A stretch of 32,000 nt of DNA from Candidatus Methylomirabilis limnetica (lineage in GTDB: Bacteria > Methylomirabilota > Methylomirabilia > Methylomirabilales > Methylomirabilaceae). The stretch is taken from positions 61,957 through 93,956 of the forward strand of contig NZ_NVQC01000030.1 in the NCBI RefSeq assembly GCF_003044035.1. Direction: 5' to 3'. Under the pieces are notes generated by a model. The model was not told the origin of the DNA. It ran no database searches and worked only from the letters and a program-made list of their open reading frames with translations. The translations under genes and the position numbers were made by a program. The stretch's first letter is position 1; every line of letters begins with the position of its first letter. Positions 3,733-32,000 of this stretch are shown here, piece by piece.

Positions 3733-5079
3733 ATGACCCGAGCGATCCCCCGGGAGCTGAAGGAAGCCCTGACCGAGAAGCTGGCGGAGTCGCTCGCCGG
3801 GCCGCTGCCAGAGGCGACACCGCGGCGGGTGTACGGTACGGTGGCCCTGCCCGGCAAGGTGAGCGCCGTGATCGGCATGCGGCGCGCGGGCAAGACCACG
3901 TTCCTCCACCAGTTGCGTCGCGAGCGCCTGGAACGGGGCACGCCCCGGGAACACCTGCCCTACGTGAACTTCGAGGACGAGCGGTTCGCGGGCCTCGAAG
4001 CGGGCCAGCTCGGTTTTCTGGTAGAGGAGCACGGCCGCCGGTTCCCCGAGGCACGCGCGCGGGCGACCGTCACCTGGTGCTTCGACGAGATCCAGGTCGT
4101 TCCTGGCTGGGAGCGGTTCGTCCGCCGGTTGCTGGATGCGGGCGGCTGCGAAGTGATCGTGACCGGATCCTCGGCGGCGCTCCTGTCGCGCGAGATCGCG
4201 ACGGCGCTGCGCGGGCGCGCATGGGAAGTGCCGCTCTACCCATTCAGCTTCGCCGAGGCACTGCGCCACCGCGGACAGGCCCTCCCCGCCGATTCCGCCT
4301 TTCTCACCGGGGAGGAGCGCGCTCGAATCGAGCGGGCCTTCGCAGACTGGCTCGTCACCGGCGGCTTCCCCGAGGCCCAGGGTCTCGACGGCGCCGCGCG
4401 GCGCCAGTTGCTGCGCGACTACGTGGATGTGGCCATGCTGCGCGATGTGGTGGAACGCCACGGGGTGAGCAACGTGACGGGGCTGCGCTGGCTGGTGCGC
4501 CACCTGCTCGGCAACGCGGCCGCGCACTTCAGCGTGGAGAAGTTCTACGCGGCGCTGAAGAGCCAGGGCATGGCCATCTCCAAGGACACAGTACACCAGT
4601 TGCTGGCTCATCTCGACGACTGTTTCCTGGTGCGGCTGGTCTGGATGGAGTCGGCCTCGGAGCGCCAGCGGATGGTCAATCCGCGCAAGGCCTACCCGGT
4701 GGACTCGGCGCTGATCGCGGTATTCGATCGCAGCGGACGCGCCAACAGCGGGCACGCCCTCGAGACGGCGGTAATGATCGAGCTCGAGCGGCGACGCTGC
4801 GCCGTGACCTATGTGCGCACGCCGGCCGGCTACGAAGTGGATTTCCTCGTACGCGGGGCGGAAGGCGAGATGGATCTGATCCAGGTGTGCGCCGACGCCA
4901 GCGATCCGGCGACGGCCGAGCGGGAGTTGCGGGCACTCGCCGAGGCCGGTCAGATCTACCCGGGTGCGCGGCTGCGGCTGCTGACGCTGACCCGCGACGG
5001 GGCACCTGCCGAGGTGCCTTCCGGCATCCTCGTGCAGCCCGCGTACGAATGGCTGCTCGAGATTGTGAAAATCGACTAA
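3733..5079 (+). CDS. AAA+ ATPase with C-terminal DUF4143 domain (COG1373-type)
   Basis: Walker A GMRRAGKTT and Walker B-like VTWCFDEIQVVPGWE. Length and layout are typical of AAA_14+DUF4143 proteins. AAGGAG lies 11 nt upstream of the ATG. Visibly higher GC than its neighbours. Confidence 0.8.
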   Translation: MTRAIPRELKEALTEKLAESLAGPLPEATPRRVYGTVALPGKVSAVIGMRRAGKTTFLHQLRRERLERGTPREHLPYVNFEDERFAGLEAGQLGFLVEEHGRRFPEARARATVTWCFDEIQVVPGWERFVRRLLDAGGCEVIVTGSSAALLSREIATALRGRAWEVPLYPFSFAEALRHRGQALPADSAFLTGEERARIERAFADWLVTGGFPEAQGLDGAARRQLLRDYVDVAMLRDVVERHGVSNVTGLRWLVRHLLGNAAAHFSVEKFYAALKSQGMAISKDTVHQLLAHLDDCFLVRLVWMESASERQRMVNPRKAYPVDSALIAVFDRSGRANSGHALETAVMIELERRRCAVTYVRTPAGYEVDFLVRGAEGEMDLIQVCADASDPATAERELRALAEAGQIYPGARLRLLTLTRDGAPAEVPSGILVQPAYEWLLEIVKID

Positions 5080-5092
5080 AGGGAATTTGCAG

Positions 5093-8000
5093 ATGATCGT
5101 TGTGCATTCCGGAGTCTATGATGGCCGAGTGCTTCTCTGGGGCGAAACGTCTGCACAATCGGATGCTGTTCTTCCCACTAGGCGGCGCGGCCGAAAGCCG
5201 GAGGTCTCCCACCCCCCATCTCTTCCCTATGATCCCGAGGCCAAGGGGCTATCGGCGGCTCTGATGGAAGCGGGATTCAGCTTCGCAGCCGACAAAAAAC
5301 GGATCGAGACCGTGATCGCCTGGATGCCCACCATGGACAAACAGCCGGTTGCATCCAGCCCCTTGATCGCTGAGCCGCCGAAGTCCCGCGCCAAACCCAT
5401 CCTGACACCCTGGACGGTGACGACGCTTCCCCTTTCTCCCGAACAAGCAGTCGAGGTTCTATGCGCCTGCGTGGGCAAGCAGACGTTGGCGCCGGGCGTA
5501 GTCGTCGGAAGCGATCTGGCGTTTTGGGCGACGGCCATGCGCTTCGCCGCAGCGCTCGTGGCCCGGCAGCAATTTCTTCCCGGAGTGACCGACGACACTG
5601 GAACCTATCGCGCCCGCTGGGGGCCGGTCTTTGCCGGACCAGATGCCGACCGACTGGCCACGCTCGCCAAGGCCATGCCTCACATCTGTCGGGCGTTGAC
5701 TCGTGAGAGCGTCTTGCCGCCGGAGACGCCGTCACGATCTGTGCTCTGCGACTTCATCGATGGGATTGTTGATTACCTCGTCCGCTCCCCGCTTCAAGCA
5801 TGCGGGGACAAGCCTGCGCTCCTGACGCAGCCCTCACCGATCAAGTCAGGACTTGGGCGCAAGAAGCAGACGTCCACCCCTTCGGCTAGGCTCAGAGCCT
5901 GCCCCGGACTCGATCCGGGGACAGGCTTCGACAGCGTTCACGACCAGTGGCTGTACGCCCTGCGGTCCCCTCATGGGATTATGGAGGGCGACGCGGCGGC
6001 GCTGGCGCAGTTTGCCGTTCAGGTTCGCGAATGGCAACACCCGATCGCCGTCTCTACGGCCACCCCATTCCGGCTCTGCTTCCGCCTGGAGGAGCCCGAA
6101 GGCAACGGAGATGATAGTGGTGCGTGGTATGTCCGTTATCTGCTGCAGGCTGCTGACGATCCCAGCCTGCTCATCCCGGCGAAAGACGCCTGGAACGCCA
6201 AGGGGCCTCAGGCGTCGATTCTAAGAAGCGGCGGGTTCAAAGCTCGGGAATATCTGCTGTCGTCCCTGGGCCAGGTTTCGGGGATCTCCTCACACATCGA
6301 GGCCAGCCTGAAGACAGCCGCCCCGGGCGGTTACGAACTGGATTCAACCGGCGCCCATGGATTCCTTATCAACTCAGCAGCGGTGCTGGAACAGGCGGGT
6401 GTTGGGGTCCTGCTGCCGGCATGGTGGACGCGTAAGGGAACAAAGCTGCGCCTGACCGCCCGCGCTCATGTGAAGAGCCCCAAGATGCAAGGAGGCGGTG
6501 GGCTGTCCCTTGATTCGATTGTCCAGTTCGACTGGCAAATAGCCCTCGGTGGCGAGCGGCTCTCCCTCGAAGAACTCAAGGTCCTGGCGCGCCTCAAGCA
6601 GCCCCTGGTCAAGGTGCGCGGCCAGTGGGTACAGATGAACGCCGAGGAGATCCGTACAGCGCTTGATTTCTGGAAGAAGGCCGCAGGTCACGCTACCGCA
6701 CGCGAGATTGTCCGGATGGCCTTGGGTGCGGGGAAGGCGCCGGACGGCATCGCTTTCGAGGGCGTCACCGCCACAGGCTGGATCGCCGACCTGCTGTCCT
6801 CATTGGACGGGCGCGCCGCGTTTGAGTCTCTGCCCGCGCCGGACGGATTCCAGGGAACGCTGCGTCCGTACCAGATGCGTGGCTATTCATGGCTGGCCTT
6901 CCTGCGGCGCTGGGGGCTGGGAGCGTGTCTGGCGGACGATATGGGACTCGGCAAAACCATTATGGCGCTGGCACTGATTCAACGGGACTGGGAAGCAGAC
7001 GACAAACGGCCGGTGCTGCTGGTCTGCCCGACGTCTGTTGTCGGCAACTGGCAGAAAGAAGCCGCCGGCTTCACGCCCGATCTGCCCGTCATGGTCCACC
7101 ACGGCATTGCCAGAACGAAAGGCGCTGAGTTGAAGACGAAGGCGCAAAAGCAGGCCCTGGTCATCTCCAGCTACGCACTCCTGCACCGGGATTTCGAGAC
7201 CCTGAAAGAGGTGCCTTGGTCCGGCGTGATCCTCGACGAGGCGCAAAACATCAAGAACCCGGAGACCAAACAGGCGAAGGCCGCGCGGGCGCTAAAGGCA
7301 GGCTATCGCATTGCGCTCACCGGCACCCCTGTAGAGAACAACATCGGCGATCTATGGTCCATCATCGAGTTCCTCAACCCAGGCTTCCTCGGCACGCAGA
7401 GCGAGTTCAAGCGGACGTTCTTCGTCCCCATCCAGGCCAACCGCGACCAGGAGGCGGTGAAGCATCTGAAAGGCCTGACCGGGCCGTTCATCCTGCGGCG
7501 GCTCAAGACTGATAAGTCCATCATCACCGATTTGCCAGAGAAGATGGAGATGAAGGTTTTCTGCACGCTGACCAGGGAGCAGGCGTCGCTCTACGCCGCC
7601 GTGGTCAAAGACGCCACCTCCAAGCTGAACTCTTCCAAGGGCATCCAGCGCAAGGGTGTGGTGTTGGCGACGCTGTCGAAGCTCAAGCAGGTCTGCAACC
7701 ACCCGGCGCAGTTGCTGGGTGACAACTCCGCGATCCCCGGACGCTCGGGTAAGTTAGCCCGTTTAACCGAAATGCTGGAGGAGATTATCCAGGTCGGGGA
7801 CCGTGCGCTGGTCTTCTCGCAGTTCGCCGAGATGGGCGACATCCTCCGACGGCACCTGCAAGAGGTGTTCGGACGCGAGGTGCTCTTCCTGCATGGAGGG
7901 GTCTCACAGCCGCAGCGAAACCGCATGGTCGAGCGCTTCCAGGCCGGCGGTGACGGCCCGCAGATCTTTCTCCTGTCCCTCAAGGCCGGCGGCGTCGGCT

Positions 8001-8287
8001 TGAACCTGACACGCGCCAACCACGTCTTCCACTTCGACCGCTGGTGGAACCCGGCGGTGGAGAACCAGGCAACCGACCGCGTCTTTCGCATCGGCCAGAC
8101 CAAAAACGTTCAGGTCCACAAGTTCCTCTGTGTGGGAACCCTGGAAGAGAAGATCGACGAGATGATCGAGCGCAAGCAGGAGATCGCTGAGGGGGTAGTT
8201 GGGACGGGAGAGGGCTGGCTGACCGAACTTTCAACTACTGCACTCAAGGACCTCTTCACGCTACGAAAAGAAGCGATAGGGGAATAG
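5093..8287 (+). CDS. SNF2-family helicase/translocase with long N-terminal region and SNF2-associated domain
   Basis: Motifs LRPYQ, DDMGLGKT (I), DEAQNIKN (II), LTGTPVENN (III), SLKAGGVGLNLT (V) and DRWWNPAVENQATDRVFRIGQ (VI). ATG 5093 lies 8 nt after AAGGGA. Confidence 0.9.
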   Translation: MIVVHSGVYDGRVLLWGETSAQSDAVLPTRRRGRKPEVSHPPSLPYDPEAKGLSAALMEAGFSFAADKKRIETVIAWMPTMDKQPVASSPLIAEPPKSRAKPILTPWTVTTLPLSPEQAVEVLCACVGKQTLAPGVVVGSDLAFWATAMRFAAALVARQQFLPGVTDDTGTYRARWGPVFAGPDADRLATLAKAMPHICRALTRESVLPPETPSRSVLCDFIDGIVDYLVRSPLQACGDKPALLTQPSPIKSGLGRKKQTSTPSARLRACPGLDPGTGFDSVHDQWLYALRSPHGIMEGDAAALAQFAVQVREWQHPIAVSTATPFRLCFRLEEPEGNGDDSGAWYVRYLLQAADDPSLLIPAKDAWNAKGPQASILRSGGFKAREYLLSSLGQVSGISSHIEASLKTAAPGGYELDSTGAHGFLINSAAVLEQAGVGVLLPAWWTRKGTKLRLTARAHVKSPKMQGGGGLSLDSIVQFDWQIALGGERLSLEELKVLARLKQPLVKVRGQWVQMNAEEIRTALDFWKKAAGHATAREIVRMALGAGKAPDGIAFEGVTATGWIADLLSSLDGRAAFESLPAPDGFQGTLRPYQMRGYSWLAFLRRWGLGACLADDMGLGKTIMALALIQRDWEADDKRPVLLVCPTSVVGNWQKEAAGFTPDLPVMVHHGIARTKGAELKTKAQKQALVISSYALLHRDFETLKEVPWSGVILDEAQNIKNPETKQAKAARALKAGYRIALTGTPVENNIGDLWSIIEFLNPGFLGTQSEFKRTFFVPIQANRDQEAVKHLKGLTGPFILRRLKTDKSIITDLPEKMEMKVFCTLTREQASLYAAVVKDATSKLNSSKGIQRKGVVLATLSKLKQVCNHPAQLLGDNSAIPGRSGKLARLTEMLEEIIQVGDRALVFSQFAEMGDILRRHLQEVFGREVLFLHGGVSQPQRNRMVERFQAGGDGPQIFLLSLKAGGVGLNLTRANHVFHFDRWWNPAVENQATDRVFRIGQTKNVQVHKFLCVGTLEEKIDEMIERKQEIAEGVVGTGEGWLTELSTTALKDLFTLRKEAIGE
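5786..5813 (+). repeat. palindromic unit TCCCCGC-N9-GCGGGGACAAGC inside the SNF2 CDS
   Basis: 7-bp stem. 26/28 identical to 16568-16595 in hemH, and 30/33 if extended to 5781/16563. Same strand and same codon phase (RSPLQACGDK). Confidence 0.7.
5902..5920 (+). repeat. second related hairpin CCCCGGA-N5-TCCGGGG followed by ACAGGC inside the SNF2 CDS
   Basis: Read directly. The CGGGGACAGGC tail mirrors that of the 5786 unit. Confidence 0.5.
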
Positions 8288-8289
8288 AT

Positions 8290-9186
8290 ATGGCTTGGCG
8301 ACGGTATCATGACTATGGATACTTCCCGCCTTCGCGCCCGCGGGAGGCCAAGGGCGGGATCAAGGCTCACTCCCAACGCGGTACGTTTGGGGAAAGCTGG
8401 TGGGCCAAGCGATGGATTGCTGTGCTGGAGGGCTTCCAGATCGGCGCTCGGTTGGGCCGGGGCCGCTCCTACGCCCGCCAGGGCCAGGTCCTCTCCATCG
8501 ATATCGACAAGGGGACGGTCAAGGCGAAGGTGCAGGGATCCCGGTCCACGCCTTACGACATCACGATCCAGGTCAAGGCGCTATCGGCCGCCAACTGGCA
8601 GAAGTTGATCGGGGCGCTGTCTCAGCAGGCCATCTTTGCGGCCAAGCTTATGGCCGGAGAGATGCCACAAGAGATCGAGCAGGCGTTCAAGGGCGTGGGG
8701 CTGTCGCTCTTCCCTGAACAGCTTCAAGACCTTGGTACGGACTGCTCCTGCCCGGACTGGTCGAATCCCTGCAAACATATCGCGGCGGTCTATTATCTGT
8801 TGGGTGAGGAGTTCCACCGCGACCCGTTTGTCATCTTCAAGCTGCGCGGGAAGAGCCGAGAGGAGCTGATCGGGCTCTTAGGCGCTACCGGTGGAAAAAC
8901 CACCAAAATAGACACCCGGAGAAAGTCCACCCCCACCGTGACGGGAGCAAAGGTCCCCCTGCCACCAGAGCCACTTGCTGCAGACATCTCCAGCTTTTGG
9001 AACGGTAGCAGCCTGCCTGAGGAGCTGTTTGGCGAGGTCCGGGTGCCGTCTGTGCCTGCGGCGTTGCTCAAGCGGCTGGGCGGCTTCCCTTTTTGGCGGG
9101 GTGAAGAACGATTCCAGGGGGCCGTCGAGCCGATCTACACCCAGGCGTCACCACGCGGCCTGGAGATCTTTCTCACGTGGAGATGA
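8290..9186 (+). CDS. SWIM zinc-finger protein
   Basis: CxCx6CxH motif CSCPDWSNPCKH, followed by IAAVYYLL. Starts 2 nt after the SNF2 stop, so it is operonic. Confidence 0.85.
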   Translation: MAWRRYHDYGYFPPSRPREAKGGIKAHSQRGTFGESWWAKRWIAVLEGFQIGARLGRGRSYARQGQVLSIDIDKGTVKAKVQGSRSTPYDITIQVKALSAANWQKLIGALSQQAIFAAKLMAGEMPQEIEQAFKGVGLSLFPEQLQDLGTDCSCPDWSNPCKHIAAVYYLLGEEFHRDPFVIFKLRGKSREELIGLLGATGGKTTKIDTRRKSTPTVTGAKVPLPPEPLAADISSFWNGSSLPEELFGEVRVPSVPAALLKRLGGFPFWRGEERFQGAVEPIYTQASPRGLEIFLTWR

Positions 9187-9196
9187 TCCGGCAATC

Positions 9197-9375
9197 GTAA
9201 CTACTCAGGTAGATAGACTGTAGGCTTTTAGACTGTAGGAACGTGCACAGACGAGCCAAGCATTTCCGAATGCGACGCGAAAATTATGGAGACCGAAAAG
9301 GTTCTGGGTGCCTTGATTAGGTCGATGCGCAACGACTAACAGCCTTCAGCCTACAGCCTAAACACCTGAGTAGTT
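9197..9375 (+). mobile_element. IVS-like inverted-repeat cassette, copy a (short subfamily), with 10-bp target-site duplication
   Basis: Ends are GTAACTACTCAGGTAGATAGACTGTAGG... and ...CAGCCTAAACACCTGAGTAGTT. The interior keeps only the C-terminal codons (METEKVLGALIRSMRND*) of a four-helix-bundle protein gene. TCCGGCAATC abuts both ends (9187-9196 and 9376-9385). Confidence 0.75.
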
Positions 9376-9432
9376 TCCGGCAATCTTGTTGAAGCCGGCG
9401 TTCAAGGCCCGGATGTTCGCGGAGGTGCAACC

Positions 9433-9735
9433 ATGAGCGTGAAAATTGATATTCCCAAAAAGAAGATTGCCGAGTTTTGCCGGCGCAACCGGATTCGCCG
9501 GCTGGCGTTTTTCGGGTCGGTGCTGCGCGACGATTTCGGGCCCGACAGCGACGTGGACGTCCTGGTCGAATTCGAATCCAGCGCGCGGGTGGGCCTGATT
9601 ACGCTGTCGGGAATGGAGATCGATTTGAGCCGGCTGCTGGAACGCAAGGTGGAAATACACACGGTCAAGGGCTTGAACCCGTACTTCCGGGATGAAGTAT
9701 TGCAGGCGGCGGAGGCGCAATATGAGCAAGCATGA
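9433..9735 (+). CDS. mntA: MNT-type nucleotidyltransferase antitoxin
   Basis: FFGSVLRDDFGPDSDVDVLVEF is the minimal NTase GS...DxD motif. GGAGG lies upstream. Overlaps the HEPN gene. Confidence 0.85.
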   Translation: MSVKIDIPKKKIAEFCRRNRIRRLAFFGSVLRDDFGPDSDVDVLVEFESSARVGLITLSGMEIDLSRLLERKVEIHTVKGLNPYFRDEVLQAAEAQYEQA

Positions 9736-10063
9736 CGATCAGGTGAGCCTCAAGGATATGCTCAGTCACGCTCGCGAAGCCGTCGACTTGCTGGGCGGCT
9801 CGATTCGGGAGGAATTGGCTGCCAATCGTGTGCTGCAACTGGCGCTGACGCAGTTGGTGGAGATCATCGGCGAGGCTGCCAATCGCATGTCTCAACCGAC
9901 ACAATCGCGTCACCCGGAGATACCGTGGCTCCAGATTATTGGCATGCGTAACCGGCTTGTTCATGGGTACGATGTCATCGACTTCGATTTGCTCTGGGAC
10001 ACCATCACCACTGATCTGCCCCCGCTCATCGACGCGTTGCAAGAGATCGTGGAGGATGCCTGA
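9722..10063 (+). CDS. hepT: HEPN (DUF86) toxin
   Basis: R-x4-H motif RNRLVHGYD. ATG 9722 lies 6 nt after GGAGG and overlaps the mntA stop. Confidence 0.85.
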   Translation: MSKHDDQVSLKDMLSHAREAVDLLGGSIREELAANRVLQLALTQLVEIIGEAANRMSQPTQSRHPEIPWLQIIGMRNRLVHGYDVIDFDLLWDTITTDLPPLIDALQEIVEDA

Positions 10064-10071
10064 GACATGGC

Positions 10072-10157
10072 CCGAGCGCACCGACGCGATCCTCGCTCGT
10101 CTGCTTGCGTTAGATGATAGCGCTATTGCAGAGCTGCTCCGCGATGGTGTGGTATAA
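10072..10157 (+). pseudogene. orphan 3' relic of a family-III CoA-transferase gene
   Basis: Reads ERTDAILARLLALDDSAIAELLRDGVV*, versus EHTDAILREVLDLGDDAISELHRDGVV* at 1456-1539. The 21-nt DNA core is 20/21 identical. No gene body lies upstream of it. Confidence 0.6.
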
Positions 10158-10317
10158 AAAGTACGGGGGAGGCAACTCCGATGTGCGTGTGGATGCCGTT
10201 GATCACGGCCGTGATCGCATGATCGGGAGAGGCTCACCAGCGACTGAAACAGGCTGGGGTCAAAGGTAACGTTAGACGCGCGAGCGATTGGCCACAGTCT
10301 CTCGGGTTCAAAGGGTG

Positions 10318-11166
10318 ATGACGATGACTCCTGAAGATGTCTACCGCAGTATCGATCGGCTTGTAGGTTTCATCCTGCGCTATGCCATCACGCTGGCAGC
10401 GATCAGCGCACTTTCAATGGCTTTGATCGAGACGTTCAAGGCGCTATTCAGTTGGCGAGATCGGTTTCACAAGCGGCGGGTCCGCGACTGGATCCAGAGC
10501 GTGGAGATCCCTCCAGAGGCCTTCATAGAGATCGGCCGCCCACCCCTCGTCAACCATTCCGATTTTCGTGAGCGTGTGTACTCCCAGTTGATCCGGCTTA
10601 CGACAGGAGAGACGGTCGACCCATCGGCCATGGGCAAGAGTATTGAGTGGACGCCCTGGGTTATTTCCCCTGATAACGCGCTGTTTGCCCTTGAGTTGGA
10701 GAAGATGATGGGGCAGATTCAGGACGCGGCCGACGCCGCGCTGGAGCATCCGAATATCAACCCTGAGCTTTACCTGTTCTTCAGCGCAGCAGCCCATCCC
10801 GATAATGACGACCACATTCGTTGGTTCATCTGGGCGCAACAGCCTCCGGCCTCGACGGCGGACGATCCAGCGCGCGCCAAGAGTCAGGCCGACACCTACG
10901 TGCGCCTGCGCCGGTTCATTCGGCGGCGGCTTGACGCGTTCCAACTTACGATGAGCTACCGGTGGCAGACGGGCAATCAGGTGGCTTCGGTGCTCCTTGG
11001 GGCAGTGGCGTTGTTCGGGTGCCTCGTGTACCTCGCTTGGACCAACCCTCCCCAAAACCCGCTTGATTGGGTTATGCTTGTCGTCGTATCGCTGGCAGGT
11101 GGAATCATGGCGCCGGCAGCTAAGGATTTGGTGATGGCCCTCAAGCGGGTGCGGAGCGGTGGCTAG
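10318..11166 (+). CDS. hypothetical membrane protein (1 N-terminal + 2 C-terminal TM segments), no recognised family
   Basis: Long ORF with coding-like composition. Hydrophobic stretches are ITLAAISALSMALI, VASVLLGAVALFGCLVYLAW and WVMLVVVSLAGGIMAPA. ATG 10318 follows AAGGG; the track starts at TTG 10288. Confidence 0.55.
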   Translation: MTMTPEDVYRSIDRLVGFILRYAITLAAISALSMALIETFKALFSWRDRFHKRRVRDWIQSVEIPPEAFIEIGRPPLVNHSDFRERVYSQLIRLTTGETVDPSAMGKSIEWTPWVISPDNALFALELEKMMGQIQDAADAALEHPNINPELYLFFSAAAHPDNDDHIRWFIWAQQPPASTADDPARAKSQADTYVRLRRFIRRRLDAFQLTMSYRWQTGNQVASVLLGAVALFGCLVYLAWTNPPQNPLDWVMLVVVSLAGGIMAPAAKDLVMALKRVRSGG

Positions 11167-11367
11167 GTATTTCGATCCACCCGAGGACTACAGACCCGGA
11201 CTCGCTTTCCAGCTTCGCGAGCGGAAAGAGGGTGGAGACCTGCAGCCTGAGGTTCGTCAGTCGCCGCCGCTCGCCACGCGCACGCCGGGCGCCGCTCCTC
11301 GGACAAGTACGGCCGAGACGCGCGAGTTGGGCCACGCCCGAGTAATTCGGTAAGCTCGAATCTGTGC

Positions 11368-12684
11368 TTATCTCTCCGTACCCCGGTACGACCAGTCCAA
11401 CAGCTCGACGGGGTGCAGAACCCGGATCTGAAGTCCACGCTCCCTGAGGCCCTTCTCGATCTGGAGGGAGCAGCCGGGGTTGCCGCTCAGCACTACGTCA
11501 GCCCCCGTCTCCCTGATCCGCTCGACCTTGCGATCGAGCAACTGCTGAGCCACGTCGGGATGAAGGAGATTGTAGATCCCGGCGCTGCCGCAGCAGAAGT
11601 CGGATTCTCTCAGCTCGACCAACCGGAGGCCCGGGATCGTATTCAGCAGTCGCCTCGGCTCCTGCCGAATCTTCTGGCCGTGCACCAGATGACCGGCGTC
11701 ATGATAGGTAACCGTCAGGTTCAGCGGCTGGAGCTTACCGCATAACGGGAGCCCAGCCAGAAGCTCTGAGACATCCCGCACCTTCCTACTGAAGGCCTCA
11801 GCCCGCTTGGCGTAGTCTGGGTCAGCTTGGAACAGCTCCCAATACTCCTTCATCACCGAGCCGCACCCCGCCGCGTTCACAGCGATAACATCGACGTTCG
11901 CCAGCTCGAAGCACTCGATTGTCCGCCGCGCCAGCAGCTTCCCTCGTTCCCGCTCCCCCTCGTGAACCAGGAGCGAACCGCAGCACTCTTGGTTCCTTGG
12001 CACCACCACCTCGTAGCCATTCTCGCTCAGAACCCGGACCGTGGCAGCATTCACGTGGGCGAAGAAGAACCGTTGGACGCAGCCGAGCAGGAGCCCAACC
12101 CGCCCACGCCTCTGACCTTTGGCTGGTGTGACCTCGGGGAGCTCGCCCAGGCAAGGGGCCGCGATCTCGGGAAGAAGGGCCTCCATCTGGCCAAGACGGC
12201 CAAAGAAGCTCAAGAGCCCTGAAGCCCTAATGAGCCGCTGCAGGCCCAACCTCTGATACAACCGAAGGAGGCTGGTAAGCGTCCGCAGGCGACCGAGATC
12301 GGTGAAAGTGTGCAGAATGAAATCGCGGAAACGCCGCTCGGCAGGGGGGTACTGATAGCGCCGCGCGATCTGGCCTCTGGCCGCCTCCATCAGGAAGCCA
12401 AACTTCACGCCCGAAGGGCAGGCCGTCTCGCAGGCCCGGCAGAGGAGGCAGAGGTCCATGTGCTTGACGAAGCTGTCAGAGGCGCCGATCTTCCCTTCTG
12501 AAGCGGTCCGAATGAGGTAGAGCCGTCCGCGCGGGCTATCCATCTCGTTGCCGAGAACAAGGTAGGTGGGACAGGTCGGCAGGCAGAACCCGCAGTGGAT
12601 GCAGTCGAGATAGAGTTCCGGATCAGGTGGGTCGAGTTGGTCAAAGGCGCCGGCGCCGATCGTTTCTGCTGACTGGCTCACCAT
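11368..12684 (-). CDS. (Fe-S)-binding oxidoreductase, GlcF / heterodisulfide-reductase-like
   Basis: Two ferredoxin motifs, CIHCGFCLPTCP and CLLCRACETACP, plus two CCG cysteine-rich domains (QECCGSLLVH, DFCCGSAGIYN). Confidence 0.85.
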   Translation of the reverse strand: MVSQSAETIGAGAFDQLDPPDPELYLDCIHCGFCLPTCPTYLVLGNEMDSPRGRLYLIRTASEGKIGASDSFVKHMDLCLLCRACETACPSGVKFGFLMEAARGQIARRYQYPPAERRFRDFILHTFTDLGRLRTLTSLLRLYQRLGLQRLIRASGLLSFFGRLGQMEALLPEIAAPCLGELPEVTPAKGQRRGRVGLLLGCVQRFFFAHVNAATVRVLSENGYEVVVPRNQECCGSLLVHEGERERGKLLARRTIECFELANVDVIAVNAAGCGSVMKEYWELFQADPDYAKRAEAFSRKVRDVSELLAGLPLCGKLQPLNLTVTYHDAGHLVHGQKIRQEPRRLLNTIPGLRLVELRESDFCCGSAGIYNLLHPDVAQQLLDRKVERIRETGADVVLSGNPGCSLQIEKGLRERGLQIRVLHPVELLDWSYRGTER

Positions 12685-12687
12685 CTG

Positions 12688-12916
12688 GTAACTACTCAGG
12701 TAGATAGACTGAAGGCTGAAGGCTGTTAGGGATAATCATGCGTGATCACACAAAACTTCAGGCATTTGAGCTGGCTGATGAAGTAGCAATGTTGGTTTAT
12801 TGGGTTGAACCAAAAGTCATAGAAACCGAGAAGGTCTTGAACGGCTTGATTCGCGTCTTGCGAGATAATTCAGAGCCTTCAGCCTTCAGCCTTCAGCCTA
12901 AACACCTTGTAGTTAC
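12688..12916 (+). mobile_element. IVS-like inverted-repeat cassette, copy b (long subfamily)
   Basis: Left arm GTAACTACTCAGGTAGATAGACTGAAGGCTGAAGGCTG, right arm CAGCCTTCAGCCTTCAGCCTAAACACCTTGTAGTTAC. The interior ORF 12738-12932 joins the N-terminus MRDHTKLQAFELADEVAMLVY to the C-terminus ETEKVLNGLIRVLRDN of a four-helix-bundle (23S IVS-type) protein, with the middle deleted. Confidence 0.75.
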
Positions 12917-12969
12917 ACCCTCTGTTCAATAGAGCGTCCCTCTTGCGGTATATTGACAGCGCCGTCCAA

Positions 12970-13722
12970 TCAGTTATCTGCCTCGTCGACGTATGCTTCG
13001 TGCAGCTTCACCGGCTCGGCGCGAACCTTTCTCAGCCGTAGGTTGAACAGTTCTACAACGATCGAGAACGCCATCGCAAAGTAGATGTAACCTTTGGGGA
13101 TATGCTGATGCAGGCCCTCGACGATGAGGGTAAAGCCGATGAGCAGGAGAAAACTCAACGCCAGCATTTTGATGGTAGGATGGCGATCCACAAAACCGCT
13201 GATCTGACGGGCGGAAACAATCATCACTCCTGCCGCGATAATCACGGCGGCGATCATGATCGCCAGTTGGTCAACCATGCCTACGGCGGTGATCACCGAA
13301 TCGAGCGAGAAGATGACATCCAGCAGGAGTATCTGCACAATGACGCTGGCGAACGAGGGGCCGACATGGGCTGAGGCGTGCCCCTCTACACCCTCCAGTT
13401 TTTGATGAATCTCATGGGTGCTCTTCCCCAGCAAAAACAGGCCGCCGAGAATGAGGATGATGTCGCGCCCGGCTATCTCATACTTGAACACCGAGAATAG
13501 CGGTTCGGTGAGGCTGATGACCCATGAGAGCGAGAGCAGAAGCAGAACGCGCGAGACGATTGCCAGTCCCAGGCCGATGGTGCGTGCCCGGTCTTGCTGA
13601 TGGGTAGGAAGTTTTCCGGCCAGAATCGAAATGAAGATAACGTTGTCAACGCCGAGAACGAGTTCAAGCACGACGAGCGTGATAAATGCGATCCATGTTT
13701 GGGGGTCAGCCAACCAATCCAT
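12970..13722 (-). CDS. TerC-family integral membrane protein
   Basis: MDWLADPQTWIAFITLVVLELVLGVDNVIFISILAGKLP is a typical TerC N-terminus. Multi-TM protein. GGAG lies 9 nt upstream of the ATG. Confidence 0.9.
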   Translation of the reverse strand: MDWLADPQTWIAFITLVVLELVLGVDNVIFISILAGKLPTHQQDRARTIGLGLAIVSRVLLLLSLSWVISLTEPLFSVFKYEIAGRDIILILGGLFLLGKSTHEIHQKLEGVEGHASAHVGPSFASVIVQILLLDVIFSLDSVITAVGMVDQLAIMIAAVIIAAGVMIVSARQISGFVDRHPTIKMLALSFLLLIGFTLIVEGLHQHIPKGYIYFAMAFSIVVELFNLRLRKVRAEPVKLHEAYVDEADN

Positions 13723-13735
13723 ATGTGAATTCTCC

Positions 13736-13910
13736 GTAACTACTCAGGTAGATAGACTGTAGTCTTTTAGACTGTAGGAACGCGCACAGATGAACCAGGC
13801 GTTTTCTGAATGCAACGCAAACATGATGGAGACCGAAAAGGTTCTGGGCGCCTTGATTCGGTCCATGCGCAGAGAGTAACAGCCTTCAGCCTAAACACCT
13901 GAGTAGTCAC
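13736..13910 (+). mobile_element. IVS-like inverted-repeat cassette, copy c (short subfamily)
   Basis: By eye about 85% identical to copy a. Ends are GTAACTACTCAGGTAGATAGACTGTAG... and ...CAGCCTAAACACCTGAGTAGTCAC. The relic reads METEKVLGALIRSMRRE*. Confidence 0.75.
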
Positions 13911-14008
13911 TATAATCCTACCCTCTGATCGGGTCAAGGACTCATCTGGCATCTCTTTTGCTCTGGCGCTTTTGAGCCGCCGACCGTATACTACAGGTTC
14001 ATTCTATG

Positions 14009-14033
14009 GTAACTAAAAGGCAGATAGACTGAA
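14009..14033 (+). repeat. solo degenerate left-arm-like sequence GTAACTAAAAGGCAGATAGACTGAA
   Basis: Resembles the GTAACTACTCAGGTAGATAGACTGAA arm of the cassettes. No partner arm is seen. Confidence 0.3.
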
Positions 14034-14070
14034 ACCCTTCGTCTCGGCGCCCCCGAAGAGGCTTTGAGCC

Positions 14071-16044
14071 ATGAACCAGATTGCTGCTTCCCAGCTTAGC
14101 GGCTTGACCGGCCTCAAAGTGGTCTCCTTTGAAAGTCGCCTGGCTGGTGCCATGGCTGACCTGATCAGCCGCCAAGGCGGGACTCCTATCTCCGCGCCGG
14201 CTGTCCGAGAGGTTCCGCTCGCGGAAAACCCGGAAGCGTTAAAATTCGCGAGAGAGTTATTGGCCGGTCGGATCGACATGATCGTGCTGTTGACCGGCGT
14301 TGGCATCCGCGCCCTACTTACCGCAATTGAAGGCGCCTACCCACGCGCAGAGATCCTTGCCGCGTTGAGCCGAATCCCGACCATTGTCCGCGGTTCAAAA
14401 TCGCAGACGGTGCTGCGCGATCTGGGCGTCCCGATTACGGTGGCTGTCCCGGAACCGAACACCTGGCGTGAAATTCTGAGCGCTATCGACGACGCAGCGA
14501 TCCCCCTGCAAGGTCGGCGGGTGGCGGTACAGGAGTACGGACGGAGCAACCCGGAGCTGGTTGCCGGGCTCGCGGCGCGAGGGGCCTCCGTGATGCGGGT
14601 CTCCGTCTACCGATGGGCATTGCCAGAGGACTGTGGCCCTCTTCGGCGCGCAATCAAGGCCATCACCGAGCGGGAGGTCGATCTGGTCCTCTTTACCACC
14701 GCAGTGCAGGTGGATCATCTGCTGCAGGTCGCAGCGGAATCCGGGTTGGAGGAGTCGCTGCGGGCAGGACTCCAGGACGCGGTCGTCGCGTCAATTGGCC
14801 CCACCTGCAGCAGAGCCATGCGCGAGCATGGCCTGGTTGTGGACCTGGAGCCGGAGCATCCGAAGATGGGGCCCCTGATCCTCACTGTCGCACGCCATGC
14901 ACACGTACTGCGACGGATCAAGCGAGCAAGGGTGGTGCGGGGTACGGGGTGCCTGCCTGCGCCGTGCGAAGTGCGGCAGGCAGGCGAGGTGCGGGAGGAC
15001 CGATCTGCGGAACTGCTGCAAGAGAGTGCCTTCCTGAAAGCCTGCCGCCTGGAGCCAACGCCCTATACGCCGATCTGGATCATGCGGCAGGCCGGGCGCT
15101 ACCTGCCGGAGTACCGTGAGATCCGCGGCAAGCTCTCGTTTCTGGAGCTGTGTCACCGGCCGGATCTGGCGGCTGAGGTCGCGGTGACGGCCGTTGAACG
15201 CCTTGGGGTGGATGCCGCGATCATCTTCGGGGACATCTTGCTGGTGGTGGAACCGATGGGGGTCGGCCTCGAGTTTACGAAGGGCGATGGCCCGGTCATC
15301 CACGACCCGGTGAGATCCGGGGCTGACCTGAAAAGACTACAGCCGGTCGATGTGCAGGAATCGCTGTCGTTCCTCTTCGAAGCGGTGCGCCTGGCGCGGG
15401 CGGCCCTTCCGCCTAATATTCCCCTCATCGGGTTCGCCGGGGCGCCGTTTACCCTGGCCTCGTACCTGGTTGAGGGTCGCGGGTCGCGTCAGTATCAACA
15501 CACCAAATCACTCATGTACCGCGACCCGGGGGCTTGGCATGCTCTGATGGAACGGCTGTCGGATGTCGTATCCGGCTACCTGAACGGCCAGATCGCCGCG
15601 GGGGCCCAGGTGGCGCAATTGTTCGATAGCTGGGTCGGCTGTCTCAGCCCGGATGACTACCGCGAGTTTGTCCTGCCCCACACGAAACGCGTCATCGCGA
15701 ATCTGACGCCGGGCGTACCGGTCATTCACTTTGGGACCGATACGGCCACGCTGCTCCCACTGATACGGGAGGCGGGCGGGAATGTTATCGGGCTGGATTG
15801 GCGCGTTGATCTGGACGAGGCGTGGGCGCGTCTCGGGCATGAGGTCGGGGTGCAAGGCAACCTGGACCCGATGGTGCTCCTTGCCGAGCCCGATGAGATT
15901 CGCCGCCAGGCCGGACGGATTCTTGAGCGTGCCGCGAAACGTCCGGGCCATATCTTCAACCTCGGTCATGGGGTGTTGCCACAAACCCCCGTGGACCACT
16001 TGCGCGCGCTCATCGACTATGTTCACGAAGAGACGGCGAGATGA
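14071..16044 (+). CDS. hemE: fused uroporphyrinogen-III synthase (HemD-like, N-terminal ~270 aa) / uroporphyrinogen decarboxylase (HemE, C-terminal ~345 aa)
   Basis: Single uninterrupted 657-aa ORF. The C-terminal part has the HemE signature TPIWIMRQAGRYLPEYREIR and ends in GHIFNLGHGV. The N-terminal part (LKVVSFESRLAGAMADLISRQGGTPISAPAVREVPL...) looks HemD-like. Confidence 0.8.
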   Translation: MNQIAASQLSGLTGLKVVSFESRLAGAMADLISRQGGTPISAPAVREVPLAENPEALKFARELLAGRIDMIVLLTGVGIRALLTAIEGAYPRAEILAALSRIPTIVRGSKSQTVLRDLGVPITVAVPEPNTWREILSAIDDAAIPLQGRRVAVQEYGRSNPELVAGLAARGASVMRVSVYRWALPEDCGPLRRAIKAITEREVDLVLFTTAVQVDHLLQVAAESGLEESLRAGLQDAVVASIGPTCSRAMREHGLVVDLEPEHPKMGPLILTVARHAHVLRRIKRARVVRGTGCLPAPCEVRQAGEVREDRSAELLQESAFLKACRLEPTPYTPIWIMRQAGRYLPEYREIRGKLSFLELCHRPDLAAEVAVTAVERLGVDAAIIFGDILLVVEPMGVGLEFTKGDGPVIHDPVRSGADLKRLQPVDVQESLSFLFEAVRLARAALPPNIPLIGFAGAPFTLASYLVEGRGSRQYQHTKSLMYRDPGAWHALMERLSDVVSGYLNGQIAAGAQVAQLFDSWVGCLSPDDYREFVLPHTKRVIANLTPGVPVIHFGTDTATLLPLIREAGGNVIGLDWRVDLDEAWARLGHEVGVQGNLDPMVLLAEPDEIRRQAGRILERAAKRPGHIFNLGHGVLPQTPVDHLRALIDYVHEETAR

Positions 16045-30335: not shown

Positions 30336-30641
30336 CTAATGTTGCACCCCGAACCCGTGCTCGCCCTTTGGCTCTTCCCATACCACCTCGACCGAACTGA
30401 CCCGCGCCGCCGGAGGGCCTGTCCGACACCAGGCGATCATCGCTTCCACGGCCGATCTCCCGCCTTCACACACCGCCTCCACCCGACCATCCGAACTGTT
30501 CCGCACCCAACCAGCGACTCCGTTGGCTGCCGCTTCATCCACCGTGGAGGCGCGGAAAAACACCCCTTGGACCCTTCCTGAGATCCAGACATGGGCTCTG
30601 ACGTGCTCTTGTCCTACCATCCGCCCTGAAGTCCCCCTCAC
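30336..30641 (-). CDS. acyP: acylphosphatase
   Basis: [16 protein letters not shown] and [14 protein letters not shown] are present. Start is GTG 30641 (GTGA overlap with the upstream stop) or ATG 30620. Confidence 0.85.
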
Positions 30642-31756: not shown

Positions 31757-31872
31757 GTAACTGCTCAGGTAGATAGGCTGAAGGCTGAAGGCTTTTAGGG
31801 GTAAGTCATGCGTGATCATACAAAACTCCGAAAAGGTCCAGAATAGCTCGATTCGTGCCTTGTGAGATAATT
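31757..31872 (+). mobile_element. IVS-like inverted-repeat cassette, copy d (long subfamily), right end truncated
   Basis: GTAACTGCTCAGGTAGATAGGCTGAAGGCTGAAGGCT...ATGCGTGATCATACAAAACT... is collinear with copy b up to GAGATAATT, then homology stops. Confidence 0.65.
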
Positions 31873-31874
31873 TA

Positions 31875-32000
31875 GGCTCTTCGCGTAATCGAGTGGGTGA
31901 ATTTCATGTTTTTCAGAGTGCCGGGAGCATGGACGTGAGTATTTTCAGCCTCAGATATTCTTCATCCCGCAGCCCATACGCACGGCGTTGGATAACCCGT
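31875..32000 (-). mobile_element. end of an ISL3-like insertion sequence (continues beyond window)
   Basis: The terminal sequence GGCTCTTCGCG... begins where copy d homology breaks. The transposase C-terminus follows 38 nt inside. Confidence 0.5.
31913..32000 (-). CDS. transposase, C-terminal 28 codons (ISL3-family-like)
   Basis: The minus-strand frame reads RVIQRRAYGLRDEEYLRLKILTSMLPAL*. The AYGFRD.EY..LKI pattern is what I associate with ISL3 transposase C-termini. Confidence 0.5.
   Translation of the reverse strand, partial: RVIQRRAYGLRDEEYLRLKILTSMLPAL

Follow-up and report, generated by a model that had tools for sequence, protein, structure and literature searches.

Inverted-repeat cassettes with relics of a four-helix-bundle gene in Candidatus Methylomirabilis limnetica are probably copies of a small non-autonomous transposon

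A contig of Candidatus Methylomirabilis limnetica, of which we analysed one stretch of 32,000 nucleotides (the window), contains inverted-repeat cassettes, here named copies a, b, c and d. All four lie between protein-coding genes and hold relics of a four-helix-bundle (4HB) gene of the PF05635/TIGR02436 family, the '23S rRNA IVS protein'. ORF-bearing intervening sequences (IVSs) of 23S rRNA have a gene-in-a-stem layout and are excised by RNase III; to our knowledge, neither what this gene does nor why its distribution is so scattered has been explained since the 1990s. What, then, are these cassettes, how did they reach their places, and how are they related to rRNA IVSs? Our answer, which we hold with considerable confidence, is that they are decayed copies of a small non-autonomous transposon with ISBst12-group ends, most likely moved in trans by the DDE transposase of that group.

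The cassettes share the ends GTAACTACTCAGGT...ACCTGAGTAGTTAC and inverted arrays of CTG(A/T)AGG heptamers. An earlier note had placed four of them in the window, and all four are there: the 20-nt left end is found without mismatches at 9197, 12688 and 13736 and with one mismatch at 31757, while no matches are expected from shuffled sequences. The right end is matched in copies a and c, is one nucleotide short in copy b, and is present only in decayed form in copy d (Table 1). The arms are, as had been proposed, able to pair in a long stem; folding gives -64.3 kcal/mol (z -4.5) for copy a and -83.6 kcal/mol (z -7.4) for copy b. A possible fifth copy falls below the nhmmer threshold and is not detected by it, and its status as a solo left-arm fragment of the family is uncertain.

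Table 1. Positions of the cassette copies and their parts in the window.
Feature	Position	Strand	Description
Copy a	9197..9377	+	181-bp ORF-less derivative, a/c subtype
Copy a, left target-site duplication	9189..9196		8 bp, CGGCAATC
Copy a, left end			GTAACTACTCAGGTAGATAG, then CTGTAGG heptamers
Copy a, C-terminal 4HB relic	9262-9339		..ISECDAKIMETEKVLGALIRSMRND and stop, then CCTTCAG/CCTACAG heptamers
Copy a, right end	9360-9377		AAACACCTGAGTAGTTtC
Copy a, right target-site duplication	9378..9385		8 bp, CGGCAATC
Copy b	12688..12916	+	229-bp derivative, CTGAAGG heptamers
Copy b, flanks	12680-12687; 12917-12924		ACCATCTG; ACCCTCTG; 7/8 target duplication
Copy b, internally deleted 4HB ORF	start 12738		MRDHTKLQAFELADEVAMLVYWV joined to EPKVIETEKVLNGLIRVLRDN
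Copy b, right end	12900-12916		AAACACCTtGTAGTTAC, 1-nt deletion
Copy c	13736..13910	+	175 bp, a/c subtype
Copy c, C-terminal relic ORF	13790-13879
Copy c, right end	13893-13910		non-canonical, GAGTAGTCAC
Copy d	31757..31900 (end ~31900)	+	decayed derivative
Copy d, left end			GTAACTGCTCAGGTAGATAGG, intact, then 8 N-terminal codons joined to C-terminal relic
Copy d, right arm	near 31884-31900		eroded, CGTAATC..GAGTGGGTGA
Possible fifth copy, solo left-arm fragment (uncertain)	14009..14033	+	GTAACTAAAAGGCAGATAGACTGAA; 37 nt upstream of hemDE

The left duplication of copy a lies just 3' of the TGA stop (9184-9186) of a SWIM gene (8290-9186), and the duplication of copy b includes the ATG start codon of a minus-strand HdrD-like gene (11368-12684). 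Copy c occupies the place of a leader of about 62 nt, between the minus-strand promoter of TerC (TTGACC-17-TATAGT) and the TerC Shine-Dalgarno sequence. It is a replacement of the ancestral TerC leader, not a clean insertion, and its whole length is predicted to serve, in the transcript, as the TerC 5' UTR. The replaced leader was considered as a yybP-ykoY riboswitch and this was rejected; Rfam finds nothing in the leaders of relatives. Copy d sits 19 nt ahead of the GTG start codon of a minus-strand squalene/phytoene synthase gene (30638-31738), and its deletion junction is also present in another locus (L074). The flanks of copies c and d have no target duplication, which is a point against the transposition reading.

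The interiors had been described as fragments of a single gene of the 23S rRNA IVS type, and this is borne out. The ORF of copy b is an internal deletion of an intact 118-aa gene in locus L032, which matches TIGR02436 (5.6e-34, 116.6 bits, cut-off 24) and PF05635 (1.8e-33, 115.3 bits, cut-off 33.8). In copies a and c only the last 25 codons or so are left, and they belong to a second sub-lineage resembling L093; copy d keeps both an N-terminal and a C-terminal piece. The window copies are pseudogene relics, below the family threshold of PF05635 and TIGR02436, and the 47-aa fusion peptide of copy b has no match to any Pfam or NCBIfam model. Intact copies elsewhere have dN/dS of 0.08-0.28, indicating purifying selection on the encoded protein, whose nearest PDB relative is 2GSC. 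The protein family comprises more than 6000 clusters (90% identity) at E<1e-20, the top 120 of them at 85-93% identity. Two full-length elements, L150 and L152, combine an intact ORF with both terminal inverted repeats (TIRs) and 8-bp duplications (CAGCTTGT; 7/8 for xTTTTTTC). An intact and strongly conserved passenger gene is a point against the transposon reading; the gene may have a role of its own in mobility or maintenance.

The family is not limited to this genome. A 22-nt pattern of the left arm is found in more than 120 places in metagenome-assembled genomes (MAGs) labelled as many phyla, and near-identical ends of 14-20 nt occur in MAGs labelled Nitrospirota, NC10, Desulfobacterota, anammox Planctomycetota, Elusimicrobia and others, although such phylum labels contain errors: a MAG filed under 'Patescibacteria' is plainly related to Methylomirabilis. 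Complete copies numbered 83, with lengths of 63-351 bp, and the 76 that are left after removing duplicates, relatives from other genomes, are used for counting duplications. Perfect 8-bp repeats exactly abutting GTAAC...GTTAC flank 19 of the 76 copies, while 0.05 would be expected from shuffled controls. A further 15 copies, against 0.7 expected, have near-perfect repeats, with one mismatch in nine (0.10 expected) and two mismatches in six (0.61 expected). The tabulation of flanking repeats that the earlier note had called for thus finds duplications well beyond copy a.

For copy a itself a duplication of 10 bp had been described. It is correct that TCCGGCAATC is present at both 9187-9196 and 9376-9385, but the real duplication is 8 bp, because the second of these takes in the final two bases of the cassette and because the 8-bp rule holds family-wide. 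The canonical right terminus is GTAGTTAC, and copy a reads GTAGTTtc there.

Close relatives, compared at orthologous loci as the earlier note had proposed, have empty sites for copies a and b. At the place orthologous to copy a, locus L136 has a single CGACAATC; a point against is that the downstream context diverges about 11 nt past the site. For copy b, L132 has TTGAACAGATGGTAATCC at the site that in the window is made up of CAGAGGGT, the cassette and CAGATGGT; the same position is unoccupied in the TerC-HdrD spacers of L129/L130 and L133. Further, identical deletion derivatives recur at different loci, and forms that have lost the ORF have multiplied. The claim of insertion by transposition of a non-autonomous element is well supported by the duplications, the empty sites and these recurring derivatives. 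Short-read contigs end inside the element.

In general the copies are intergenic (74 of 76). This agrees with the description of elements scattered in mRNA leaders and intergenic DNA, but no preference for leaders or for orientation is seen: the four classes of flanking-gene orientation are about equal among the 76 copies. A leader-specific device, hinted at by three of the four window copies, was dropped for this lack of any orientation or position preference. The full-length cassette has no blastn match among the PLSDB plasmids and INPHARED phages, and among viral contigs the arm pattern hit a single, degenerate copy. In the searchable literature we found no published description of the cassette family, using the arm sequences and PF05635, TIGR02436 or S23p together with repeats or heptamers.

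Which enzyme could move such an element? No match to an ISBst12-group transposase is found by tblastn in the window or in any cassette locus. A transposase gene with these exact termini was not found in the window or in the 8-kb loci around 120 copies, and these loci contain no longer element with the same ends that could be an autonomous partner, the only long pair being the one from copy b to copy c in the window. The earlier observation that no transposase is associated with the cassettes therefore stands in cis, but the termini point to ISBst12-group DDE transposases of the IS66 family as likely acting in trans.

The ends of ISBst12-group insertion sequences (ISs) are closely similar to those of the cassettes. 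For ISDge4 of Deinococcus geothermalis the published TIRs are GTGACTACTCAGCA / GTAACTGCTCAGCA, with a direct repeat of 8 bp (PMC12898284), and duplications of 8 bp flank the ISs in both PMC12898284 and PMC11946415. Reading other elements directly, we found the end GTAACTATTCAGCCC with the duplication AACTCGTC in an ISGka4-family IS of pHTA426, GTAACTACTCAGCTT at both ends of an IS of Bacillus thuringiensis p120510, GTAACTGCTCAGCA with TAAAAATC in Deinococcus wulumuqiensis, the left repeat GTAACTGCCCAGGTAGGAAAG with ATTTTACG in Nostoc UHCC 0870, and the right repeat GTAACTACTCAGGC in Pseudanabaena; the Nostoc and Pseudanabaena ISs, like that of B. thuringiensis, are on plasmids. Among 80 metagenome ISs examined, about 50 have both ends recovered, with lengths of ~1.5-2.0 kb, most of them ~1.5-1.6 kb. 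They encode PF03050 DDE_Tnp_IS66 with zf-IS66. The termini met most often are GTAACTGCCCAGGT and GTAACTCCCAAGC, and perfect duplications of 8 bp flank several of these ISs. Examples of similar ends are the IS of L163, starting GTAACTACTCAGGTG (14/14 with the cassette end), that of L228, with GTAACTACTCAGGTCC and the right repeat GTAACTACCCAGGTAGAT (17/18 with the cassette end), and that of L235, with the terminus GTAACTACTCAGGTACC. The matching ISs share the first 12-18 nt, and the full 20-nt left arm with heptamers is found in none of those recovered. Classical IS66, with GTAAGCG ends, was also considered as a parent and is a poorer fit than the ISBst12 subgroup.

Taken as miniature inverted-repeat transposable elements (MITEs) or mobile insertion cassettes (MICs), the cassettes have the expected features. 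Their terminal inverted repeat, GTAACT(A/G)CTCAGGT, resembles those of ISDge4, p120510, L163, L228 and L235; their target-site duplication has the 8 bp made by the transposase of that group; elements of 63-490 bp have no internal transposase and no ORF but the 4HB gene or its relics; and copies a and b are polymorphic for presence and absence. Since both the termini and the duplication match ISBst12-group ISs, the elements appear to be MITE or MIC derivatives.

The complete form is about 0.48 kb long and qualifies as a mobile insertion cassette. From the outside inwards it consists of the 14-bp terminal inverted repeat, an arm-specific block (AGATA left, TAAAC right), tandem heptamers (CTGAAGG or CTGTAGG) and the 4HB gene of 118-120 codons, followed by the complementary heptamers and the inverted terminus. 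A DDE transposase of the ISBst12 group, encoded elsewhere in the genome, would cut or copy the cassettes and insert them, and internal deletions give ORF-less derivatives of 63-350 bp that still transpose. In the window, copy a inserted just 3' of the SWIM gene and copy b exactly on the start codon of the HdrD-like gene, duplicating that codon; copy c took the place of the TerC leader, and copy d is eroding. The complementary arms would fold any transcript into a long hairpin, and this IVS-like layout may explain the tolerance of insertions inside operons and leaders.

Tandem heptamer arrays adjoin every 4HB gene examined, and their sequence varies: CTGAAGG in the window family, GACAGAG/GACGGAG in the 23S IVS of Azospirillum, GGGAAAA/TTTTCCC in Geminocystis, GGGAGTA/TACTCCC in Nostoc edaphicum and AAAAGCT in Pseudanabaena, while the Coxiella 23S rRNA IVS has GACAGAT (PMC4990558). 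A wider reading is conceivable, though we consider it rather doubtful: the 4HB gene in inverted heptamer arrays could be a selfish gene-in-a-hairpin module, widespread and carried by more than one kind of vehicle. With ISBst12-type ends it would transpose across phyla, once inserted in helix 45 or 25 of rrl it would become an ORF-bearing IVS, and in cyanobacteria it would seed or accompany STRR-like arrays, the 4HB protein, an Avd relative, acting on the heptamers or the stem. Such an action would account for a constant 7-nt period with variable heptamer sequences and arms that remain complementary. If this reading is right, ORF-containing rRNA IVSs would have a definite source, and PF05635 would gain its first function.

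It is improbable that the cassette is a fully self-sufficient selfish module, in which the 4HB protein acts on its own heptamers and stem for spread or retention and the ISBst12-like termini are just one vehicle or a coincidence. The great number of intact ORFs under strong purifying selection speaks for it, as do the heptamers beside every 4HB gene in spite of their different sequences, and a weak similarity to the Avd family. However, no catalysis of DNA breakage or joining is known for a helical bundle of 118 aa, the ORF is kept in only 2 of 136 scanned copies while ORF-less derivatives still multiplied, and a fixed 8-bp duplication with IS-type termini is the signature of a DDE transposase.

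We find it very hard to see the hairpins primarily as RNA elements selected by the host, that is RNase III-processed or stabilising stem-loops of REP/ERIC type kept for regulation and not mobile DNA. In its favour are the high stability of the folds, the position of three of the four window copies only 3-19 nt upstream of a gene start, with copy c as the whole predicted TerC 5' UTR, and a covariation of heptamer types between the left and right arms (A/A 51, T/T 9, T/A 3, A/T 0), but the last can be accounted for by shared ancestry of sub-lineages. At the one variable position of the stem we observe A-T 47, A-C 21, G-T 15 and G-C 0; with no G-C pair at all, the terminal stem lacks compensatory changes. 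Over 14 stem positions, top-strand A-C pairs number 48 and top-strand G-T pairs 32, an excess too small to assign a functional RNA strand. Judged by these pairings, the terminal stem is unlikely to be a selected RNA pair and fits a sequence recognised by a transposase. Further, the lack of orientation bias argues against host-selected RNA, the duplications and empty sites indicate recent insertion, and Rfam gives no match for the whole window at the gathering threshold or for 9100-14100 even at E<=1. REP/BIME-type and other host-selected palindromic RNAs were rejected on the duplications, the orientation data and the Rfam result.

That the cassettes are escaped 23S rRNA IVSs, at home in helix 45 or 25 of rrl and spread by recombination or retro-transfer of excised IVS RNA, would agree with the gene family and the layout of known IVSs (a stem, heptamers upstream of the ORF, the ORF in sense), but is most unlikely given that about 120 loci contain no rRNA, that the ORF and inverted heptamer arms of the one true 23S IVS read (Azospirillum lipoferum AZO_p2) are not accompanied by GTAACTACTCAG termini or by an evident 8-bp duplication, and that neither recombination nor RNA transfer is expected to give a fixed-length duplication with IS-type ends.

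MITEs and mobile insertion cassettes are in themselves ordinary. What is added here is a candidate mobilising enzyme, the ISBst12-group IS66 transposases, for a cassette with the '23S rRNA IVS protein' gene. An old idea, cited in PMC4990558, is that IVSs are remnants of transposition; with a candidate enzyme named, it becomes directly testable. The family is very successful, being present in MAGs labelled as many phyla, and its 119-aa protein, which is under purifying selection, forms thousands of clusters. It also matters for annotation and gene expression: assemblies from short reads are interrupted at the copies, and a copy can land on a start codon (b) or take the place of a native leader (c).

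Compared with ORF-bearing 23S IVSs (Coxiella burnetii, Leptospira; Azospirillum), the cassettes likewise have a sense PF05635 ORF in a long terminal stem with adjoining heptamers (PMC4990558), as seen in the folds of a and b and in the intact ORFs of L032, L150 and L152. In contrast, the window copies lie between protein-coding genes and not inside a 23S rRNA gene; they have IS-type termini and 8-bp duplications, which the Azospirillum IVS lacks; and their heptamer is CTGAAGG instead of GACAGAT/GACGGAG. No rRNA signatures are present in the approximately 120 related loci examined, and Rfam finds no rRNA in the window. On the sequences compared, the link to rRNA IVSs is architectural only: the proposal that the IVS cassette is a mobile element is retained for the dispersed cassettes, but rRNA IVSs are not tied to it.

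Heptanucleotide repeats of STRR type are a second comparison: on cyanobacterial plasmids tandem 7-nt arrays of varying sequence flank 4HB genes, often as inverted complements, and in the surroundings of these genes no GTAAC termini were seen. ISBst12-group ISs share with the cassettes the termini GTAACT(A/G)C(T/C)CAG(G/C), identical at 12-14 of 14 positions, the fixed duplication, and intergenic, AT-leaning insertions. They differ in being ~1.5-1.6 kb long with one PF03050 DDE gene, while the cassettes are 0.06-0.5 kb and have no transposase, and the subterminal heptamer arrays were not seen in the ISs read.

A further parallel is with mobile insertion cassettes and MITEs, such as MIC231 of Bacillus cereus, the Correia/NEMIS elements of Neisseria and Nezha of cyanobacteria; Correia elements are transcribed into stems that are cut by RNase III. 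These too have IS-type inverted ends and a target duplication, have no transposase and are mobilised in trans, and there are full-length forms with a passenger gene (MIC) and short forms that are hairpin MITEs. What sets the present cassettes apart is a parent in the ISBst12/IS66 group, a 4HB 'IVS protein' passenger inside heptamer arrays, and near-identical ends in many phyla.

The four cassettes lie where the earlier note had placed them (Table) and share their ends. The left-end 20-mer GTAACTACTCAGGTAGATAG is exact in copies a, b and c and has one mismatch in copy d; in shuffled sequence no occurrence is expected. The right end AAACACCTGAGTAGTTAC is found in copies a and c, in a version with a one-base deletion in copy b, and in a merely eroded form in copy d. 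A profile search with the arms of 83 relatives recovered copies a-d and no further copy in the window, and a 25-nt fragment resembling the left arm falls below its threshold. The arms can indeed form a long stem, with -64.3 kcal/mol (z -4.5) for copy a and -83.6 kcal/mol (z -7.4) for copy b on the reverse strand. Copies a and c form one sub-lineage, with CTGTAGG heptamers and the C-terminal ~25 codons alone, and copies b and d another, with CTGAAGG heptamers and both N-terminal and C-terminal pieces. The window belongs to a 93-kb metagenome contig, and its TerC has 100% identity with CLG94_11615 of Candidatus Methylomirabilis limnetica. Several short-read contigs terminate within copy a, as contigs are expected to do in a repeat with several copies.

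Positions of the cassettes and of other features, in the window and in the compared loci
Feature	Sequence	Position	Right end	Site
Copy a	window	9197-9377	9360-9377	spacer between SWIM and MNT/HepT
Copy a target duplication	window	9189-9196, 9378-9385
Copy b	window	12688-12916	12900-12916	HdrD-like ATG
Copy c	window	13736-13910	13893-13910	TerC leader
Copy d	window	31757-~31900	near 31884-31900	upstream of squalene/phytoene synthase gene
Left-arm-like fragment	window	14009-14033
Defence-island-like block	window	3733-10063		around copy a
33-nt palindrome	window	5781-5813, 16563-16595		SNF2 helicase, ferrochelatase
Region of replaced TerC leader	window	13723-14070
Conserved TerC leader	L132; L133	3766-4000; 3878-4000
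G/C-run palindromic repeat	L129/L130; L133	4754-4903; 4754-4957		TerC-HdrD spacer
Intact cassettes in long contigs	L138, L148, L149, L150, L152	~2420-2930 each		polysaccharide clusters
Second MITE-like family	L092	4938-5126
Solo end of that family	L092	~60-139
Degenerate cassette	L153	6953-7216
IVS with ORF	L249	4337-4805		23S rRNA gene

That these are mobile elements inserted by transposition is borne out by their flanks and by empty sites. We fixed the element boundaries at GTAAC...GTTAC and compared the 8 flanking bases in 76 non-redundant complete copies: they are identical in 19, and differ by one mismatch in nine and by two in six, while left flanks paired with the right flanks of other copies give 0.05, 0.10 and 0.61, respectively. 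No consensus is seen among the duplicated octamers, which lean towards AT. At copy a the duplication had been read as 10 bp, but its true length is 8 bp (CGGCAATC); the longer reading arose because the last two bases of the element (GTAGTTtC) chance to repeat the TC preceding the target. The empty site in L136, a contig with a 90% identical SWIM protein, has a single octamer and no element (...GGAGATGCTCCGACAATCTTGTCGG...). This contig diverges ~11 nt further on because its downstream gene differs. Copy b also has an empty site, TTGAACAGATGGTAATCC, in L132, the closest relative (TerC 96%), where the window reads TTGAACAGAGGGT, the 229-bp element and CAGATGGTGAGCC. Copy b is therefore inserted on the ATG of the HdrD-like gene, duplicating CAGATGGT, and in the distal duplicate the ATG is now AGG.

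Copy c, in contrast to these two, is not a clean insertion but a leader replacement: the TerC promoter (TTGACC-17 nt-TATAGT) and Shine-Dalgarno sequence (GGAGAA) are retained, and the intervening ~62 nt of the relatives are replaced by the element. Its flanks show no target duplication and its promoter-side end is non-canonical (GTGAC), as if a deletion had come after the insertion. In Methylomirabilis MAGs the a/c-type deletion is found again at further loci, and L074, a DATMXF01 locus, has the junction of copy d, so ORF-less forms multiply as such.

As to local effects, copy b appears to part the start codon of the HdrD-like gene from its earlier upstream sequence, transcripts started at the TerC promoter are predicted to contain copy c as a 175-nt hairpin-forming 5' UTR, and copy d seems to be decaying where it lies. 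Since 74 of the 76 copies are intergenic, with no orientation preference, we see in them tolerated insertions that may affect expression locally, rather than selected regulators.

Some other features of these neighbourhoods can be mentioned. The block around copy a, with an AAA_14/DUF4143 ATPase, an SNF2 helicase (DUF3670), a SWIM zinc-finger protein and an MNT/HepT toxin-antitoxin pair, resembles a defence island and is missing downstream of the SWIM gene in L136. The TerC leader replaced by copy c is conserved in relatives over ~62-75 nt from promoter to Shine-Dalgarno sequence (..GACGACCGGCGGAGACTAACGTCGGAAGGCGGTGCCGCTCTGAAAGCGGGTGCCAAATAGTAGGAGAA); it has no match in Rfam and may thus represent a TerC leader element not yet described. 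The TerC-HdrD spacer of M. oxyfera-like relatives has another, G/C-run palindromic repeat (..CCCCCTTTAAAAAGGGGGA..GGGGGTTTTCCC..AAAACCCCCC..) where the window has a cassette, so different repeats have entered this spacer in different lineages. An unrelated 33-nt palindrome, TCCG(C/T)TCCCCGCTT(C/A)AAGCATGCGGGGACA(A/G)GC, 30/33 identical between its two copies, lies in frame within two unrelated genes, as LVRSPLQACGDK in the SNF2 helicase and LRSPLKACGDR in the ferrochelatase. Nine ferrochelatase residues are missing exactly there in the M. oxyfera-like L129 and present in L132; the repeat resembles the palindromic inserts in coding regions known as Rickettsia RPE.

The interiors had been taken for relics of an IVS-type four-helix-bundle gene, and comparison with an intact relative agrees. 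Copy b translates as two pieces, MRDHTKLQAFELADEVAMLVYWV and EPKVIETEKVLNGLIRVLRDN, that closely match the first 22 residues and the stretch EPKIIETEKVLNGLIRAL of a 118-aa protein in a Nitrospira MAG (L032); copy b is thus an internal deletion of such a gene. The intact protein scores 5.6e-34 with TIGR02436 (four helix bundle protein) and 1.8e-33 with PF05635 (23S rRNA-intervening sequence protein), and weakly with DGR Avd; its nearest solved structure is 2GSC. The window fragments no longer score with any family model, and are pseudogenes.

Scanning 185,579 species-representative genomes with the pattern AACTRCTCAGGTAGATAGRCTG matched at least 120 stretches. The MAG labels among the matches listed include Nitrospira/Nitrospirota, Methylomirabilis, Desulfobacterota ('Deltaproteobacteria'), Brocadiaceae, Elusimicrobia, Desantisbacteria, Bacteroidales and Proteobacteria. 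Such labels need care: a 'Patescibacteria group bacterium SMAG_U13113' (DATMXF01; L062, L071, L074) has the cassette subtypes of the window and a TerC 91% identical to its TerC, and probably is a Methylomirabilis-like genome that has been mislabelled or contaminated. Together with the window, the matched loci give 136 left arms, only two of them with a full-length ORF, and 83 complete elements of 63-351 bp; the shortest consist of no more than a hairpin, with a terminus and heptamers on each side of a loop. The sole match in a viral-contig collection is a degenerate copy in L153 (IMGVR_UViG_3300032173_000143), with a GAGAGTGGA-type tandem repeat inside and many CCTACAG / AGGCTAAT repeats on its right side.

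At E<1e-20, more than 6000 database clusters match the intact protein, and the best 120 of these are 85-93% identical, mostly on short contigs. L150 and L152 each contain a complete element of ~0.48 kb with its two termini; their 8-bp duplications are CAGCTTGT, with an ambiguity of one base at the boundary, and GTTTTTTC/CTTTTTTC. When intact copies are compared in pairs, dN/dS is 0.08-0.28, and therefore the protein has some function where it is intact. All five independent long-contig contexts are polysaccharide, LPS or exopolysaccharide clusters, in which the gene shares its strand with its neighbours (glycosyltransferases, Wzy, Wzz, DegT, epimerases).

The cassettes encode no transposase, as the earlier note had observed, but their termini point to a mobiliser. 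GTAA-type ends with an 8-bp duplication suggest the IS66 family. ISDge4, of its ISBst12 group with a single 449-aa transposase, has the TIRs GTGACTACTCAGCA and GTAACTGCTCAGCA and the 8-bp direct repeat CCTCGATG (PMC12898284; 2026); classical IS66 elements have GTAAGCG ends and likewise 8-bp repeats (PMC11946415). An ISBst12-group IS on the Geobacillus plasmid pHTA426 has the ends GTAACTATTCAGCCC...GGGCTGAATAGATAC and the duplication AACTCGTC. Its transposase matched 122 plasmid records, and we read the ends of several: GTAACTACTCAGCTT at both ends in B. thuringiensis p120510, GTAACTCCCAAG with TGTTTTTA in Octadecabacter, GTAACTGCTCAGCA with TAAAAATC in Deinococcus wulumuqiensis, GTAACAATTCAGCC with TTCAATTT in Ca. 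Chlorohelix, GTAACTGCCCAGGTAGGAAAG (IRL) with ATTTTACG in Nostoc UHCC 0870, and the IRR GTAACTACTCAGGC in Pseudanabaena. Further, a profile of nine such transposases found 80 metagenome ISs, whose proteins are PF03050 DDE_Tnp_IS66 with the IS66 zinc finger. Two ends were recovered for ~50, which are ~1.5-2.0 kb long (most ~1.5-1.6 kb); GTAACTGCCCAGGT and GTAACTCCCAAGC are the commonest termini, and perfect 8-bp duplications surround L173, L175, L196, L199, L209, L221 and L223. One IS (L163) starts with GTAACTACTCAGGTG, equal to the cassette end over 14/14 terminal bases, and the IRR of another (L228), GTAACTACCCAGGTAGATTAAGG, matches the cassette left arm at 17/18 first bases.

The cassettes thus bear ISBst12-group ends and the duplication typical of this group, and an ISBst12-group enzyme within the same cell would move them. 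The only variable position of the terminal stem is A-T in 47 copies, A-C in 21, G-T in 15 and G-C in none, and the ends hardly vary while dS at synonymous sites of the cargo gene has reached ~0.5. This fits protein recognition rather than selection for pairing. Another MITE-like family, in L092, shares the cassette termini (GTAACTACTCAGCA...CTGAATAGTTAC) and is flanked by TATATATT, an 8-bp duplication without mismatch; its interior is different (GACGCAGAT and CACAAAG-type short repeats), so ISBst12-type ends are not confined to a single non-autonomous family. MITEs and mobile insertion cassettes are an already known kind; for an ISBst12-derived family with IVS-type cargo across phyla, we found no description in the literature accessible to search.

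The proposed link with rRNA IVSs holds for the layout, a gene within a stem, but not for membership: there is no rRNA in ~120 cassette loci, bearing in mind the poor assembly of rRNA operons in MAGs. A genuine helix-45 intervening sequence was found by a plasmid search with the protein, in Azospirillum lipoferum 4B AZO_p2 (NC_016586.1), within a 23S rRNA gene (Rfam LSU 2692.8 bits). Its ORF, 35% identical to L032, lies between 36-nt inverted arms of GACAGAG/GACGGAG heptamers; this IVS lacks GTAACTACTCAG ends, shows no evident 8-bp duplication and is not annotated in the PLSDB gene table. These heptamers resemble those of the Coxiella helix-45 IVS, which has a 28-bp terminal stem and tandem GACAGAT heptamers upstream of the S23p ORF and is excised by RNase III (PMC4990558).

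Diverged relatives on cyanobacterial plasmids, one between cas6 and cas4 and another between ribonucleotide reductase genes, have long tandem heptamer arrays alongside, of other sequences and usually complementary between the sides: AAAAGCT (~15 times) upstream and AAAAGCC downstream in Pseudanabaena pPg_01 (L243), GGGAAAA / TTTTCCC in Geminocystis (L246) and GGGAGTA / TACTCCC in Nostoc edaphicum pNe_5 (L247). These arrays resemble STRR repeats. In the cassettes, too, left and right heptamer types are associated. The common denominator of PF05635 genes appears to be an ORF between heptamer arrays. It is a speculative and rather unlikely idea that one module gave rise to, or services, both ORF-bearing rRNA IVSs and the cyanobacterial arrays, with the protein acting on heptamers. 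The cassette family is such an ORF-between-heptamer-arrays module, bounded by ISBst12 ends.
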